Assembly: GCA_013696265.1 (NCBI GenBank)
Contig: JACCYX010000450.1
Coordinates: forward strand, 1-28,492
DNA: 28,492 nt
Reading direction: 5' to 3'
From: Chloroflexia bacterium
GTDB lineage: Bacteria > Chloroflexota > Chloroflexia > Thermomicrobiales > UBA6265
Shown: positions 3,519 to 10,363 of the stretch, one piece after another
How positions within the stretch are numbered: position 1 is the stretch's first letter
Layout of the letters: every line of letters begins with the position of its first letter
The notes under the pieces: model-generated
The model's database searches: none
What the model saw: the letters and a program-made list of their open reading frames with translations, nothing else
Told to the model about the DNA's origin: nothing
Made by a program: the position numbers and the translations under genes

Positions 3519-4655
3519 CTACCTGACCCGCGCCCGTAACGTCTCGGCCATGGCTTCGACGCGTTCGCGGTCGATCGCGTAGTACTTCATGCCGCGCCTG
3601 GGCTCGACCTGGATTAAACCGGCCCGCTCCAGTTGCGAAAGATGCCGGGAGACCGCCGATTGCGCGATCCCCAGCCGGCCAACGATTTCCTGGGCGTAGA
3701 GTTGCCCGCTGCTGAGGAGGTCGATAATGCGAAGACGGTTGGCATCCCCCAGGGCGCGCAGCATTTCGAGGAGATCGTCTCCCGACAGGGCCGGGATCGC
3801 GACCCCGTTTTCCGGGTCGGGCCGGAAGGATTCCAACTCGACTTCCGGCACACCCAATCCGGCGCCAGCCGCGACTACGTTTTGGGCACTGAAAAAGACC
3901 ACCAGGTCGGGCGGGTAACTGATGTAGCTGACGAAGGCGCCGATGTGCGCGGACGGGCAAAAGGTGACGCTCGCCACCTGGTTCAGGCCCGCCGCCAGCG
4001 TCGATGGCAGGCGATTGCCGGTCAGTTCCGCGAACGCCAGGCCAAAGCCGCGGCTGGCCTCGATCCGGGCGATTCGCTCCGCTTCTTCCAGTTCGCCGCG
4101 CCGTTGCTCGTATTCATCGCGGTAGACCGCGTCCCACACCCCGCGGATGAGCCGCATCGTCCGCCACTTCAGTTGTTCCGGATCGCGGATCAACTGCACC
4201 ACGTCGGCGGCGGCGGCGGTGGTCAGGCCGGGTTCGACGTAGCGATACCAGGCGTTTTCCTCATCGAGCGAGGGGGCGGCGAGGCCGGTTCCCAGGTCCT
4301 GGTGAACCCGATCAAGGGCGCCGATCGCCATCTCCCGGTAGTCGTGGGCGGGAAGCTCGCCAAGGAACCAGAGCAGGTCGTCGATCGAGGCCGGCAGGCG
4401 ATCCTCCCGCAACGGGTCGAACCGCATGATCGGTTCTTCCATGTAGTAGAGCAGCCGGCCCGAGAAGCCATGCAAAACATCCAGGTCTTCCTGAAGTTGC
4501 CGGGGCAGGGCCCGCCGGGCGCCGATCAGCCAGCGGTCCAGCCCGCTACCGGGCACGGCCCGGTACAGCAGCGACATGACGGAAACCATGTCGAGCGGAA
4601 TCGAGATCGCGGTTCGTACTTGCAGCGCGGGACGTCCGACGACGAGTTCGCCCAT
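3519..4655 (-). CDS. ArsR/SmtB-family transcriptional regulator with long N-terminal (DUF5937-like) domain
   Basis: C-terminal LRALGDANRLRIIDLL...EIVGRLGIAQSAVSRHLSQLERAGLI winged HTH; ~290-aa N-terminal domain. Confidence 0.9.
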   Translation of the reverse strand: MGELVVGRPALQVRTAISIPLDMVSVMSLLYRAVPGSGLDRWLIGARRALPRQLQEDLDVLHGFSGRLLYYMEEPIMRFDPLREDRLPASIDDLLWFLGELPAHDYREMAIGALDRVHQDLGTGLAAPSLDEENAWYRYVEPGLTTAAAADVVQLIRDPEQLKWRTMRLIRGVWDAVYRDEYEQRRGELEEAERIARIEASRGFGLAFAELTGNRLPSTLAAGLNQVASVTFCPSAHIGAFVSYISYPPDLVVFFSAQNVVAAGAGLGVPEVELESFRPDPENGVAIPALSGDDLLEMLRALGDANRLRIIDLLSSGQLYAQEIVGRLGIAQSAVSRHLSQLERAGLIQVEPRRGMKYYAIDRERVEAMAETLRARVR

Positions 4656-5009: not shown

Positions 5010-5039
5010 TTGACATACGGCCGATCGCCACTCTAGTCT
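5010..5039 (+). promoter_or_regulatory. sigma70-type promoter for the recombinase-like gene
   Basis: TTGACA (5010-5015), 18-nt spacer, TAGTCT (5034-5039). Confidence 0.6.
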
Positions 5040-5088
5040 CGGGCATATGGCGGTGAGATACGCATCCACGCGGCGACTGGAGGTCACC

Positions 5089-6174
5089 ATGCCCGATCGG
5101 CCCGATTCCAGCAACCAGGTGCCTCCGGACCATGTATCCCGCTTTCGGGGCCGGGATGGGGTCACCGATGATGAGCGCGAGCAGCCGCCGTATGGCAGCG
5201 AGGCGCTTGCCCGGATTGAATCGGAGGCGCGGAACAACCGCCCCGCCCAACTCGACTTGTTCGCGGTCGGCGACGGTGGCGCGTTCATCCAGGAGGTGGG
5301 TGGGCTGGCGCCGCTCGCCGCCCGCTCCAGCCTCGACCTCGCGCGAACGACATACCGCCGGCATCTGGAGGCGCTCAAACGGCCGCGCAACACGATCGAA
5401 TCCTACAGCTACGACCTCAACGTGCTCGAGCACCTGATCGGCCCCAAACCGCTCAACCGGATCGAGCGGCGGGACATCGCCCGGTACCTGGGCGATGCCT
5501 CCAGCAAGACCACCCGGAAACGGCGGCTGACTTCGGCGCGTCGCTTCTTCCGCTACCTGATCGATGACGTCAAAGTCCTTAAGTTCGATCCGACCGAGGG
5601 CTACTATCCGCACGCCATCGCCTTGCGGGCACCGGCGCCGCTCTTCGAGCAGGAACAGCGTGACCTGCTGGAGGCGGCCCACGCCGACGAGGAGTGGAGC
5701 GCGCTCGCGGTCTGGCTGATGATGCGGCTGGGCTTGACGCGCGCCGAGTTGCTGGCGTTGCAACGGGATCACATCGACCGCACCAACCCGCTCGAACCCG
5801 TCGTGTACGTGGCCTACGACTCCGCCGCCAAGCAATCGAAAGACCGGAAGCTGGCGGCGGATCGAGCCTTCGCGGCGCTCTACGACGCCTTCCTGGAGGC
5901 GCGGGAGCCCACGGGAATCCTGTTTCCCGTTGGACCGCAGGCCGTGAACGGCATGATCGAGCGGCTGCGGCGAGCGGCGAACATCACGAAAGACGTGTCG
6001 CCGCAAACACTGCGCACGACCTTCGCCGTCGAGCAAGCCAGGGCGGGCGCCGACCAGCAACAGTTGTTGGCCCTGCTGGGATTGGTGAACGATCCCCGCA
6101 ACCGGGCCAGCGTCGATCGCTACCTCGCCCTCGCGTCGCCACCGCTCGAGACCGCTGTTCCGGACCGTCCATGA
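5089..6174 (+). CDS. Tyrosine recombinase/integrase-fold protein with degenerate active site
   Basis: SAM-like N domain (RNTIESYSYDL...IARYL...TRKRRLTSARRFFRYL) and catalytic-domain boxes (LGLTRAELLAL, VSPQTLRTTFA, LLGL...VDRY). SD GGAGGT precedes ATG 5089; in-frame ATG 5047 is an alternative start. Confidence 0.88.
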   Translation: MPDRPDSSNQVPPDHVSRFRGRDGVTDDEREQPPYGSEALARIESEARNNRPAQLDLFAVGDGGAFIQEVGGLAPLAARSSLDLARTTYRRHLEALKRPRNTIESYSYDLNVLEHLIGPKPLNRIERRDIARYLGDASSKTTRKRRLTSARRFFRYLIDDVKVLKFDPTEGYYPHAIALRAPAPLFEQEQRDLLEAAHADEEWSALAVWLMMRLGLTRAELLALQRDHIDRTNPLEPVVYVAYDSAAKQSKDRKLAADRAFAALYDAFLEAREPTGILFPVGPQAVNGMIERLRRAANITKDVSPQTLRTTFAVEQARAGADQQQLLALLGLVNDPRNRASVDRYLALASPPLETAVPDRP

Positions 6175-6187
6175 TGGGACAACCACG

Positions 6188-6712
6188 GTGACAACTGGTC
6201 AGCTCGTGGTGATCGGCCTGCGGCTGATCGTGCCGCTGCTCATCCTGAGGCGACCGTTGGCGGGCGGCATCGCCGCAATGCTGCTCGACGCGACGGACGT
6301 GATCATCGTCGAGATTTTCGGTCCGGGCGGGATGGGCGCACATTACCAGAATATTGATAAAGGGCTCGATCTCTGGTATCTCGGGCTCGAAGCCTACGTT
6401 TCGCTGAGCTGGACCGAGCGCGTACCACGCCTGATCAGCATGTGGCTGTTTGGACTGCGACTCGTCGGTGTAGTGCTGTTCGAACTGAGCGGGTGGCGCC
6501 CGTTGCTCTTCCTCTTTCCGAATCTCTTCGAAAACTGGTTCCTGTTCGTGCTCGTGATCTGGAGATTCTTCCCCAACGTGCGGCTCGATACCTGGCGAAG
6601 GTGCCTGGCCTGGCTCACCGTGCTGTACATCCCGAAACTCGGTCAGGAATACCTCCTGCACGTCGCCGAAGCGCAACCCTGGGCGTGGCTCAAGGACCGG
6701 CTGGGCATTTAG
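6188..6712 (+). CDS. Hypothetical integral membrane protein (CDP-alcohol phosphotransferase-like Asp pattern)
   Basis: 174 aa, about 5 hydrophobic segments, LLDATD...YQNIDKGLD; GTG start 13 nt after the recombinase stop. Confidence 0.8.
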   Translation: MTTGQLVVIGLRLIVPLLILRRPLAGGIAAMLLDATDVIIVEIFGPGGMGAHYQNIDKGLDLWYLGLEAYVSLSWTERVPRLISMWLFGLRLVGVVLFELSGWRPLLFLFPNLFENWFLFVLVIWRFFPNVRLDTWRRCLAWLTVLYIPKLGQEYLLHVAEAQPWAWLKDRLGI

Positions 6713-6847: not shown

Positions 6848-7771
6848 TCACACTGACTCCGTATCGGCGTCCCAGGCGAGGAGTTGGGCCGCCAGCGAAC
6901 GTATCTCATCGACATCGTGCAGGACGTCGAGCCAACGCGCCGGGAGCGCGGACGCGCCGTACTCCGCCCCGGCCAGGGCGCCGGCAACCGCTCCGGTGGT
7001 ATCCGAGTCGTGACCCAGCGCCACGGCCCGCACGATCGTCTCCTCCGCGGAATCGGTCGAGAGGAGAGACCAATATGCGGCGTTCAACGTATCGAGGACG
7101 TAGCCGCCCGACAATACATCCGCTCGATCCATGTCCGGCGCCCGCCGGATGGCGTCAACAACACGATCCTCGCCAATTCCCTCGATCGAGGCATCGACCA
7201 GGGAGTCGCGGTGTCCGCCACCCAGCAGGTGGACAATGCCCTGGTTGAGCGCCACCGCACCCCAGGTTGCCCGGGGATCGGCGTGCGTCATCCGCGATGT
7301 CTCGATCGACGACCACCGCAACCGCTCGGGATCGGACCGGAACCGCGCCGCCAGCGGCGCGCAGCGCATCACCGTTCCATTTCCCGCGACGCCATCAACG
7401 GAGGTCCGCTGCAGGCGTTCGCCGGCATCTTGCCACGGCACGCCCTGGGCGATCAGTTCCAGGGCGCGATCGGTGGCAAGGCCGATATCCTTCGGTCCGG
7501 ACCGATACCAGGCGACAAGGTTTGCGGCCACGGCGTCGAGATCGATGCCGTCGCGCGTGCAGCCCCGCGCGATGGCCAGGGCCATCTGCGTATCGTCCGT
7601 GTACTCGCCCGGTTCGAGACGATGCGGACCCCCGCCCACAATTTCGCGGATTCCATCGGGAAACGACCGGTCGAGATCGTTCCGATCGCGAAACTCGACG
7701 GCGCCACCGAGCGCATCGCCGCAGGCCAGCCCAAGGAGGCATCCCGCCGCCCGGTCGTCGAGACCGGTCAT
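6848..7771 (-). CDS. ADP-ribosylglycohydrolase (DraG/ARH family)
   Basis: GLACGDALG, YTDDTQM, DIG, GNGTVMRCAP, TH and GHDSDTTGAVAGALAGA motifs. ATG at 7771 overlaps the upstream stop (ATGA). Confidence 0.95.
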   Translation of the reverse strand: MTGLDDRAAGCLLGLACGDALGGAVEFRDRNDLDRSFPDGIREIVGGGPHRLEPGEYTDDTQMALAIARGCTRDGIDLDAVAANLVAWYRSGPKDIGLATDRALELIAQGVPWQDAGERLQRTSVDGVAGNGTVMRCAPLAARFRSDPERLRWSSIETSRMTHADPRATWGAVALNQGIVHLLGGGHRDSLVDASIEGIGEDRVVDAIRRAPDMDRADVLSGGYVLDTLNAAYWSLLSTDSAEETIVRAVALGHDSDTTGAVAGALAGAEYGASALPARWLDVLHDVDEIRSLAAQLLAWDADTESV

Positions 7772-8841
7772 GGCCGCATCGCCTGGTGAAGATCGCCGGT
7801 GGCTCCTCCCAATGCCGCGACCGTTTGGGGATCGGCGCCCGCGCGAATCGCCGGTTCGACGATATCCGGCATGAGATCGGGCACCCAGGAGACGAGCGCG
7901 ACGCACGGTTCCAAAGCCGTCAGGATCGACGGGCGTTTCGATGGCCAGACCACGGCCGACGAACCGCGGCCGATCCTCAAGTCATTCACGTTTGCCTCCC
8001 CTTCGAGCATCGTGACCACGCCGAGGCTGCCGGATTTCGAGATTTCCAGGGATCCGCCCCGCGGCAGAGCGATCCGTTCGAGCGCGAATGGGCGGCACGC
8101 GGCGAGAAGATGCCGTTCCCCGATCGCTGGCCGAAGCGAAACGGGAGAGATGAGTTCGGGAATCGACTGGAGTTGGGCCACCGCGAACCCCGCGTCGAGA
8201 TGCACCTCGCGGGGGTTGCCTTCGGCGTCGACCCGACCCCAATCGTCGAGCCGGTAGGTGATGTCGGACGGTTGCTGCACTTCGTAAACCATCACCCCGG
8301 CGCCGAGCGCGTGCACGGTGCCGGCGGGAATGAGGACCGTGGTGCCGGGCCGGGCCGGGACGGTTCGCATCATGCGCGCCGATGAGCCATCCAGCCGGGT
8401 AGCCGCCTCCTGAAACTCGGCAAGGCTCACGCCGGGCCGGATTCCGAGGTAGAGTACCGAACCGGGATCGGCTTCAAGTATGTGCCAGGCTTCGGTTTTC
8501 CCGAGCCGGTCCAGATGCGCGGCCTGGCTGTCGTCTGGATGGACCTGGATCGACAGGTTTCCCCCGGCGTCGATGAGCTTGACCAGCAAGGGGAAAACCG
8601 GCCGGCCACCGACCGCGTCGTGCGCTGTCGCCCCAAGACGTGCCGACGGATCGGCCTCGACGATTTGCCCAAGCGTCTGGCCCGCCAGGTAGCCGGTCGA
8701 AACAACCGCCTCGCCGGCGGTAATCAGCGCCTCGCCGATGGGCTCGCCTAGGGGCAGCGCAAGCCCGTAGCGGCCAAGCTTGCGCCCGCCCCAGGGCTTG
8801 CTATCGAGACGCGGCGAGACGAGGGAAACGCGATTGTCCAA
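7768..8841 (-). CDS. manA: Type I (class I) mannose-6-phosphate isomerase, cupin
   Basis: KPWGGRKL, IGEA, FPLLVKLIDA...LSIQVHPDD, GKTEAW, IPAGTVHAL, EVQQPSDITYRLDDWGR. Probable TTG start at 8841 with GGAG upstream (8856 is an alternative). The ORF-track extension to 10179 is antisense to manC. Confidence 0.93.
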   Translation of the reverse strand: MDNRVSLVSPRLDSKPWGGRKLGRYGLALPLGEPIGEALITAGEAVVSTGYLAGQTLGQIVEADPSARLGATAHDAVGGRPVFPLLVKLIDAGGNLSIQVHPDDSQAAHLDRLGKTEAWHILEADPGSVLYLGIRPGVSLAEFQEAATRLDGSSARMMRTVPARPGTTVLIPAGTVHALGAGVMVYEVQQPSDITYRLDDWGRVDAEGNPREVHLDAGFAVAQLQSIPELISPVSLRPAIGERHLLAACRPFALERIALPRGGSLEISKSGSLGVVTMLEGEANVNDLRIGRGSSAVVWPSKRPSILTALEPCVALVSWVPDLMPDIVEPAIRAGADPQTVAALGGATGDLHQAMRP

Positions 8842-8988
8842 CGGAACTTGCTCCAACGATTCGCCAAAGGTAGGTGCCCTAAATGCCCATTGCCGCATCG
8901 TACTATGTTCGCCACCATAGAGGTCTGCCCGAGCCTGGACACGCCAGGCGTGGATGGGAATTTTTCGGGAAACCATGGAGCACGACGC

Positions 8989-10113
8989 ATGACCATCTCG
9001 GAAACCTCCAGCATCACGACGCGGCGGCGAACGGGCGCCTTCTGGGCTGTTATCCCGGCGGGCGGCTCGGGCACGCGCCTGTGGCCGCTGAGCCGCTCGA
9101 CGCGGCCGAAGTTCCTGCTCCCGTTGCTTGGGAACCAATCGCTCCTGCAGCAGACCTTTGACCGGCTCCGCCCACTGACCGACCCGGAACACATCGTGGT
9201 CGTCTGCGGACCGGCTCACGTCGCCGCAATCGCGCGGCAACTCCCCGACCTGCCATCCGGAAACATCATCGTCGAACCGGCCCCGAACGGGACCGGTCCG
9301 GCCCTCGCCCTGGCCTCGGCGCTGATTGCCCGGCAGGATCCGGACGCGATCATGGGTAGCTTCGCGGCCGACCATGACGTTACGGATACCGGGAGCTTCG
9401 AAACCGCCGTCCGGACCGCGATCGCGGCGGCGGCGACGGGCGACCTGGTCACGATCGGACTCACGCCGACCCGGCCCGAAACCGGCTACGGCTACATCGA
9501 ACGGACCGATGACGTCGTGGTCGATACCGGTGCCGGCGTGGCTTACCGGGCGGCCCGCTTCGTCGAGAAACCAGACCTGGACACCGCCCAACGATATGTC
9601 GAGAGCGGTTCCTTTCTCTGGAACGCCGCGATGTTCACCTGGCGCGTCGACACGCTGCTGGACGAACTCAAGCGTCAGCAGCCGCAAATCTTCGAAGGTG
9701 TCCAGGCCATCGCCAAAGCCTGGGACACCCGCTCCCGAGAGCGGGTGACGGCTTCGATTTGGCCGACCCTCCCCAACATCACGATCGACCACGGAATCAT
9801 GGAACATGCGGCGCGGGTCGCCGTGGTGCCGGCCGAAATGGGGTGGTCCGATGTCGGCGACTGGAACGGCCTGGGCGAAATGATCGAGCAGGACGCGCTC
9901 GGCAATTCGGTGCGCGGCGATCTCCTTCAGATCGACACGACCAACAGCGTGATCTGGTCGGAAACCGGACGCATGGTGGCGATGGTGGGGTTGGACAACA
10001 TCATCGTGGTCGACACCGACGACGCGTTGCTCGTGATCGACCGAGCGAAGTCGCAGGATGTCCGTCAGGTGGTGGAGCGCCTCAAATCGGGGATGCGGAC
10101 CGAGTTGAGTTGA
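8989..10113 (+). CDS. manC: Mannose-1-phosphate guanylyltransferase
   Basis: AVIPAGGSGTRLWPLSRSTRPK, EPAPNGTGPA, ADH, PETGYGYI, FVEKP, WNAAMF, WSDVGDW; GGAG before ATG 8989. Confidence 0.96.
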   Translation: MTISETSSITTRRRTGAFWAVIPAGGSGTRLWPLSRSTRPKFLLPLLGNQSLLQQTFDRLRPLTDPEHIVVVCGPAHVAAIARQLPDLPSGNIIVEPAPNGTGPALALASALIARQDPDAIMGSFAADHDVTDTGSFETAVRTAIAAAATGDLVTIGLTPTRPETGYGYIERTDDVVVDTGAGVAYRAARFVEKPDLDTAQRYVESGSFLWNAAMFTWRVDTLLDELKRQQPQIFEGVQAIAKAWDTRSRERVTASIWPTLPNITIDHGIMEHAARVAVVPAEMGWSDVGDWNGLGEMIEQDALGNSVRGDLLQIDTTNSVIWSETGRMVAMVGLDNIIVVDTDDALLVIDRAKSQDVRQVVERLKSGMRTELS

Positions 10114-10145
10114 TGGGAGAGGATTCGCGTCTTCTCGAATCGTGT

Positions 10146-10363
10146 TGGGGAGGGCGAGCGAGCCGTTAATCCGAACCACGCGACGACGCGCGGCTCCCGG
10201 GCGCCTGTCCAGAGCGCAGCATGGGACCCTCCCGCCTGGTCGCCGGTCCCCAAGACCCCGGTTCGTGGCTCAGCCTGGGGTGACGAGGCATCGCGGGAGG
10301 GCATACGCGGGCCAATGCCTTGTAGCGAAAGGTGGCATTAACGAGCCCGCTAGCCCTCCTCTA
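10146..10363 (-). ncRNA. Candidate 6S-like structured RNA
   Basis: Ends pair over about 22 bp (10147-10170 with 10337-10361). Central asymmetric bubble, perfect 9-bp inner stem (10227-10235/10293-10301) plus further pairing. Intergenic between convergent genes. TATGGT -10-like hexamer on the minus strand at 10375-10370. Confidence 0.5.

Follow-up and report, generated by a model that had tools for sequence, protein, structure and literature searches.

Tyrosine recombinases are textbook enzymes, and conserved degenerate members with a housekeeping distribution have barely been studied. In streptococci and lactococci, there are XerD-like proteins that lack catalytic residues. The XerD protein of Bacillus subtilis acts as a recombination-independent, sequence-specific unloader of SMC, according to the account of Karaboja 2021 cited in PMC12322038. 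Saturation mutagenesis of Cre (PMC2943603) indicated that the R-I position tolerates Lys or His only, that the W315L variant, with Leu in the Trp/His-III column, retains weak activity, and that H289Q is still active, with Gln found at H-II in about 1% of natural recombinases; the same study found that Cre cannot do without its Tyr or its beta-hairpin Lys. The bacterial consensus for binding to the sliding clamp is QL(S/D)LF, as given in PMC9690074, which cites Dalrymple 2001.

Here we analyzed a 28,492-nucleotide stretch of DNA (the window; contig JACCYX010000450.1 of assembly GCA_013696265.1) from a Chloroflexia bacterium of the order Thermomicrobiales, which encodes a Xer-like protein that we refer to as P0001. 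Among described proteins, the chromosome-dimer resolvases XerC and XerD of bacteria and XerA of archaea resemble P0001 in having a SAM-like core-binding domain and a catalytic-fold domain, and they provided its best HMM and structure matches. P0001 belongs to a family of Xer-derived pseudo-recombinases that has no name and that we observed in Chloroflexota. The original prediction described a catalytically dead or atypical recombinase repurposed as a DNA-binding or structural protein; the selection on the gene, its core distribution, and its non-mobile context support an intact, repurposed protein, which may be catalytically dead. We give about even credence to a more specific version, in which P0001 would be a DNA-binding protein of Xer descent that has little or no catalytic activity and is held on the sliding clamp.

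The gene, its upstream signals, and two of its neighbors are as follows:

5010 to 5039, + strand: possible promoter, with a perfect -35 element TTGACA (5010-5015), an 18-nt spacer, and a weak -10 element TAGTCT
5079 to 5083, + strand: Shine-Dalgarno sequence GGAGG, read from the sequence
5089 to 6174, + strand: coding sequence of the Xer-like protein P0001, 361 amino acids, with the stop codon TGA at 6172-6174
6188 to 6712, + strand: 174-amino-acid membrane-like hydrophobic protein with no Pfam match, starting 14 nt downstream of the stop codon of the Xer-like gene
3519 to 4655, - strand: divergent ArsR-type HTH protein

We favored the ATG at 5089 over the in-frame ATG at 5047 because more than 100 homologues begin with MPD and GGAGG lies 5 nt ahead of 5089. 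The predicted good promoter and Shine-Dalgarno sequence were right as to the latter and to the -35 element, but the -10 element matches only three of six consensus bases, and the consensus promoter scan reported no promoter upstream of 5089, the candidate at 5010-5039 falling below its threshold.

Fold and active site of P0001

To the two Pfam domains of P0001, PF02899 (residues 90-159, E 2e-8) and PF00589 (residues 187-334, E 1e-10), both over the cut-off, the NCBIfam searches added matches to XerA (NF040815, E 6e-20), XerD (TIGR02225, E 8e-19), and, most weakly, XerC (E 7e-15). These three Xer models gave P0001 55-72 bits versus cut-offs of 220-335, and it missed the equivalog cut-offs of both XerC (TIGR02224, 55 bits versus 335) and XerD (TIGR02225, 68 bits versus 329.6). 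An AlphaFold2 model built from a 30-sequence alignment (mean pLDDT 81) was confident over the core, residues ~80-350 (pLDDT ~90), and of low confidence over the first ~75 residues. The best solved structure found by Foldseek was XerA (5hxy), with Tn1549 Int, lambda Int, IntI, XerH, and Cre also matched; the probability was 1.00 for XerA, lambda Int, IntI, XerH, and Cre. The two Pfam domains, the modeled core, and the match to 5hxy together bear out the predicted tyrosine-recombinase fold. The core-binding domain carries the Xer-type motifs NT..Y..DL and TRKRRLTS. The layout of the protein is:

5089 to 5325, + strand: N-terminal extension, residues 1-79, predicted to be disordered (pLDDT 42-74); canonical Xer proteins have no such extension
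5248 to 5262, + strand: QLDLF (Q54-F58), a motif of the beta-clamp-binding type, from its conservation and its match to the consensus
5326 to 5571, + strand: core-binding (SAM-like) domain, about residues 80-161, from PF02899 at 90-159, helices at 82-161, and alignment with canonical Xer
5647 to 6135, + strand: catalytic-fold domain, about residues 187-349, from PF00589 at 187-334, AlphaFold2, and Foldseek

We placed the catalytic columns in three ways: with HMMER against XerA, with MAFFT together with five canonical Xer proteins of the same order, and with the profile-profile alignment of hhalign (probability 99.9%). The column correspondences were identical in all three, and none of them placed a canonical catalytic set on P0001. 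The signature R-I/K-beta/H-II/R-II/H/W-III/Tyr reads T217, K248, Q306, R309, L332, and Y345, with three of the six residues replaced:

5731 to 5748, + strand: box I, GLTRAE (G215-E220), with Thr217 at the R-I column (replaced), Arg218 adjoining it, and an invariant Glu220, from the three alignments and the family alignment
5830 to 5847, + strand: beta-hairpin K248-Q-S-K251-D-R253, with Lys248 at the K-beta column (kept), aligned with the catalytic Lys, and R253 invariant
6004 to 6018, + strand: QTLRT (Q306-T310), with Gln306 at the H-II column (replaced), the invariant Arg309 at the R-II column (kept), and a non-catalytic Thr310, from the alignments
6076 to 6084, + strand: LGL (L330-L332), found family-wide, with Leu332 at the H/W-III column (replaced), from the alignments
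6085 to 6123, + strand: VNDPRNRASVDRY, containing the invariant R337, N338, S341, V342, R344, and Y345; Tyr345 (6121-6123) occupies the nucleophile column (kept) and sits after the 4-residue insertion DPRN

The three alignments therefore agree with the predicted substituted active site in which the second Arg and a C-terminal Tyr are kept, and the residues and coordinates first reported for GLTRAE, QTLRT, LGL, and Tyr345 were all exact. Two details required correction. Where H-x-L-R-H had been said to read QTLRT, the H-II His is indeed replaced by Gln306, but the second His, here T310, is a residue of the Xer motif and not a catalytic one; its column is occupied by His in the majority of family members, and Thr is confined to the sub-clade of P0001. 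The Arg of box I had been called replaced or shifted by one: it is better read as lost than as shifted, as relatives carry Lys at R-I and a basic residue at +1 is found family-wide. In the alignment of the wider family, Arg218 is the counterpart of this conserved +1 basic residue, with the R-I column changed from Lys in relatives to Thr here.

Measured against the saturation mutagenesis of Cre, Thr at R-I is the most damaging of the changes. With the two-domain, C-shaped DNA-binding architecture of Xer and the phosphate-contacting R-II retained, P0001 would bind DNA; because R-I (Thr), H-II (Gln), and H/W-III (Leu) are lost, binding without cutting, or with very poor cutting, is most likely. 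Weak or specialized cleavage is conceivable, since in this order Tyr345 is near-invariant and R309 and E220 are invariant, K248 is kept in the query's taxonomic family, and Arg218 adjoins R-I. A stronger form of this idea, the main rival reading although we judge it unlikely, is that P0001 is an atypical but active tyrosine recombinase, either as the second subunit of a heteromeric Xer/dif system beside a canonical Xer or through slow or one-strand chemistry, with Arg218 standing in for R-I. The kept Tyr345, R309, E220, and K248 would suit such an enzyme, Arg218 might reach the phosphate, and Cre tolerates Gln at H-II and, weakly, Leu at W315 (PMC2943603); the R-I column, however, holds Thr, Ser, or Gly, where Cre accepts Lys or His only (PMC2943603). 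Further evidence on both sides came from the homologues.

Conservation and distribution in the order and phylum

Pairwise dN/dS values against four relatives (95% to 69% amino acid identity) were 0.11-0.19 overall and 0.08-0.18 in the core. The gene was present in 55 out of 61 sampled genomes (a tally that takes in two unpublished genomes, G015 and G035, which contribute no sequence to this analysis; 53 out of 59 without them) and in 25 out of 27 genera of the order, mostly as a single copy and at 43-69% identity, and its sequence divergence tracked taxonomy within the order. It is thus a mostly single-copy core gene of its order; the named close homologues are Thermomicrobiales metagenome-assembled genomes (MAGs). 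In 15 aligned sequences from across the order, we observed GL[TSG]R.E, Gln at H-II, an invariant R-II, an invariant LGL, and Tyr in 15 out of 15. When we checked homologues for shared substitutions, the same changes appeared, in place of canonical residues, across the order and the phylum. The view that P0001 is a decaying pseudogene with recent lineage-specific substitutions, for which the substitutions themselves speak and nothing further, is therefore refuted and close to impossible: the frame is intact, dN/dS is 0.08-0.19, and members throughout the order and in much of the phylum have these substitutions as fixed features. With its intact frame, low dN/dS, and core-gene distribution, the gene is, as originally predicted, no decaying pseudogene.

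Within the order, no part of the protein is better conserved than the segment around the Tyr (R337, N338, S341, V342, R344, and Y345), which speaks for an active recombinase. By contrast, the K248 column is Lys only in P0001's own taxonomic family and H, R, W, Y, L, or N in the other families of the order, although Cre strictly requires the Lys (PMC2943603). Five near-complete genomes of the order each have one strong Xer, encoded elsewhere by another gene (259-288 bits on TIGR02225) and with R...HxxRH...LGH...Y intact, where the P0001-type protein scores 44-79 bits; one strong Xer per genome would leave room for P0001 as an active partner. XerC and XerD work under the control of FtsK at a dif site close to the terminus; when we searched these five genomes with a dif core pattern, the single match was off-consensus, and a control with the pattern reversed did as well.

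In the genome of P0001 itself, the only other PF00589 match lies on contig C129 (G000:C129:15590-15826; L001:1429-1779, - strand) and is a canonical HSLRH...LGH...Y fragment cut by the contig end. As this MAG is 69% complete, a missing full canonical Xer carries no meaning here; the canonical Xer may be unassembled.

To describe the wider family, we searched 1.84 billion representatives with a profile, which returned 52 matches at E ≤ 1e-30 and 1,455 at E ≤ 1e-10; 102 full-length representatives were aligned and 100 were classified, 75 as the degenerate type and 25 as canonical. In the 75 degenerate representatives, LGL and R-II are kept, the H-II column is variable, and the R-I column is mostly Lys, with Lys or Arg as the next residue; across most family members the R-I column is not Arg. 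The Tyr column is occupied by L, I, V, F, C, or W in 27 of these 75. A quick maximum-likelihood tree search, short of a full careful one, placed the canonical proteins in one clade (SH-aLRT 100), the Thermomicrobiales-type proteins in another (100), and most Tyr-less proteins in a single clade (98) inside the degenerate side, with P0001 on the degenerate side of the branch that splits off the canonical clade. P0257, counted as degenerate, fell within the canonical clade; its row shows LGH and a Tyr, and its alignment looks faulty. The Tyr-less sub-clade keeps LGL, R-II, and mostly the N-terminal motif, so the function shared by the family needs no nucleophile, and sister clades that have dispensed with the Tyr while keeping the other family marks speak against an active recombinase. 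P0001 fits these marks itself, with LGL for LGH, R-II kept, a non-His residue at H-II, a residue other than Arg at R-I, and a motif before the core-binding domain.

The named members that we looked up belong to Chloroflexota, together with one MAG labeled Candidatus Binatia, and databases label family members 'XerD', 'integrase', or recombinase. When 201 evenly sampled Chloroflexota genomes were scored, the distribution was bimodal and 55 out of 201 carried the family (E ≤ 1e-53), in many taxonomic families; all 28 strong loci examined in this sample were of the degenerate type. In same-class genomes of families f6-f8, the family was found in 0 out of 21. XerD-like genes, counted at E ≤ 1e-55 across the same 201 genomes, numbered 0, 1, or 2 in carriers of the family, whereas same-class genomes without it had one Xer, which counts against an active second subunit. 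We also considered whether the pseudo-Xer replaces XerC or XerD and rejected this, as the XerD-like genes (0, 1, or 2 in carriers, 1 in same-class non-carriers) formed no complementary pattern.

We found no tRNA gene in the window, no meaningful flanking repeats, and no conserved mobile genes, in line with the original statement that no att-like or mobile-element context is visible. That P0001 is the integrase of an unrecognized mobile element or prophage, as the Pfam name 'Phage_integrase' and the database labels integrase and recombinase might suggest, is thus very improbable, and we rejected this reading on the distribution of the gene and the missing tRNA gene and repeats: the gene is near-universal and mostly single-copy in the order, its divergence tracks taxonomy, and its neighbors are housekeeping or regulatory genes that vary by taxonomic family. 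No neighbor shared across the order was found, nor any link to smc, scpAB, ftsK, or dnaN in the neighborhoods, nor another functional link. The 174-amino-acid protein, whose gene is probably co-transcribed with the Xer-like gene, is a neighbor only within the query's taxonomic family, with its position kept in close relatives (L020, L023, and L066-L068), and the ArsR-type protein is likewise a neighbor only within that family.

Several other neighbors were recorded. An ADP-ribosylglycohydrolase gene adjoins the Xer-like gene, or is close to it, both in the window (6848-7906, - strand) and at L020:4075-5031, L024:6884-7954, and L025:6880-7797; some of these three further loci come from other taxonomic families, and a Sir2 gene is also nearby in L020. 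Family f4 has GGDEF/HD/GAF neighbors, and one taxonomic family of the order has a large signaling protein with GAF / HD (HD-GYP-type) / GGDEF domains that ends ~80-90 nt upstream of the Xer-like gene on the same strand (L013:2201-5857, L017:2123-5836, and L015:3095-5821). The genes of two distant Tyr-less members from different MAGs are both followed directly by a convergent gene for a GerE(LuxR)-HTH / Kelch beta-propeller protein (L032:7836-9272 and L034:4022-5359). Elsewhere in the window (7768-10179, - strand, and 8848-10113, + strand), a long antisense frame overlaps a mannose-1-phosphate guanylyltransferase gene; part of this antisense frame resembles mannose-6-phosphate isomerase (from a neighbor in L068), and the 803-amino-acid ORF is probably an artifact of high G+C content.

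The N-terminal motif and a proposed clamp tether

The QLDLF sequence of P0001 is an exact match to QL[SD]LF and lies ~21 residues ahead of the DNA-binding core. In the order-wide alignment, Q54 and L57 were invariant and F58 was at least 90% conserved; in a phylum-wide alignment of 37 sequences with 29% mean column identity, Q54, L57, and F58 were among only 18 columns that were at least 90% conserved. Counting was limited to the 70 degenerate representatives with at least eight residues ahead of the core-binding domain, and Q..[LMIF]F occurred in 42 of them versus 0.73 expected from shuffled tails. In every case, 18-25 residues separate the motif from the core-binding domain, and in many proteins it opens the sequence (MQLSLF, DQLDLF, and EQLSLFD). 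The canonical relatives have a median of two residues ahead of that domain, and the motif and extension, sought in the canonical representatives, were found in 0 out of 25. In the AlphaFold2 model, the motif region had a pLDDT below 50 and the peptide was not docked on the core. Variants occur: QPPLF or QPSLF in other families of the order and QLALV in two genomes.

One lineage of the wider family has no N-terminal extension after its first ATG and begins right at the core-binding domain. In two genomes of a lineage that seems to lack the tail (L055 and L065), the frame stays open ahead of the first ATG and encodes TIRK.Y[TA]LF, which hints at a non-standard start codon and a remnant ..LF motif. 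A second conserved tail segment, H.SRFRGRDGVT..ER..PP, lies upstream of QLDLF (window 5089-5240, residues 1-50); it is kept in the query's taxonomic family, is absent from the other families of the order, and may be another short linear motif.

The short linear motif suggests that P0001 most likely binds the clamp, with QLDLF in the disordered tail docking the protein onto the beta sliding clamp DnaN. Because the family shares the Xer-type body, R-II, LGL, and the tail motif but not the Tyr, we prefer the non-catalytic, clamp-tethered reading. A rival reading keeps the dead, Xer-derived DNA-binding protein as a regulator or architectural factor and has the Q-x-x-L-F peptide bind a non-clamp partner or serve self-assembly. 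The motif is short, QPPLF and QPSLF depart from QL[SD]LF at positions 2-3, it is the motif that carries the case for clamp docking, and B. subtilis XerD unloads SMC in a role outside recombination (Karaboja 2021, cited in PMC12322038). We nevertheless regard this rival as rather unlikely, as the conserved Q (position 1), L (position 4), and F (position 5) agree with the clamp consensus, the peptide is part of a disordered terminal tail with a fixed spacing from the core-binding domain, and AlphaFold2 left it off the core.

Under the clamp-tethered reading, docking would tie the binding of a DNA target to replication or to the clamps that stay behind on freshly copied DNA. The broadest proposal, which we put forward tentatively and with well under even confidence, is that these proteins are sliding-clamp clients of a new class. 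In this proposal, an ancient pseudo-recombinase of Xer descent would recognize specific chromosomal sites, be loaded or activated through DnaN, and couple a chromosome-handling step to replisome passage in a large part of Chloroflexota. The step might consist in marking the terminus or the dif site, in taking SMC or the clamp off the DNA, or in controlling the canonical Xer.

The family is found in about a quarter of the sampled Chloroflexota, and in it the loss of catalytic residues accompanies the acquisition of a peptide of the clamp-binding type. Should this peptide bind DnaN, a recombinase fold would join the clamp interactome, which would also point to a new replication-coupled chromosome function in a phylum with almost unexplored chromosome biology. 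These results also advise caution in annotating such genes as 'XerD' or 'integrase'.

Comparison with known systems

Our literature search returned no tyrosine-recombinase-fold clamp client, no account of the family of P0001, and no relevant work on dead or pseudo-recombinases. With Xer proteins P0001 has in common NT..Y..DL, a basic core-binding helix, GL..E, K..K[DE]R, P.TLR.TFA, and an aligned Tyr. It differs from them in the replaced R-I, H-II, and H/W-III residues, in the ~80-residue N-terminal extension with QLDLF, and in the 4-residue insertion before the Tyr; moreover, the five near-complete genomes hold a P0001-type protein as well as a canonical Xer.

The streptococcal and lactococcal XerD-like proteins (NF002685) are, as is P0001, chromosomal Xer paralogues kept beside a working recombinase. 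They belong to another phylum, and the match of P0001 to NF002685 is weak and partial (E 7e-7, 29 bits versus a 178-bit cut-off, N-terminal half only). To our knowledge, no clamp motif is known in these proteins.

B. subtilis XerD, as described in PMC12322038, offers a precedent for a Xer-type factor that binds DNA site-specifically without strand exchange. Unlike P0001, it is canonical and active, and no link to SMC/ScpAB was seen for P0001, its gene neighborhood included. For the tail, the nearest parallels are Hda/HdaA and clamp-binding transposases (PMC4549789), whose folds are unrelated to that of P0001; these proteins act on DNA and are held on DnaN by a short motif of the QL.. type within a disordered terminal tail, an arrangement comparable to the one proposed for P0001.
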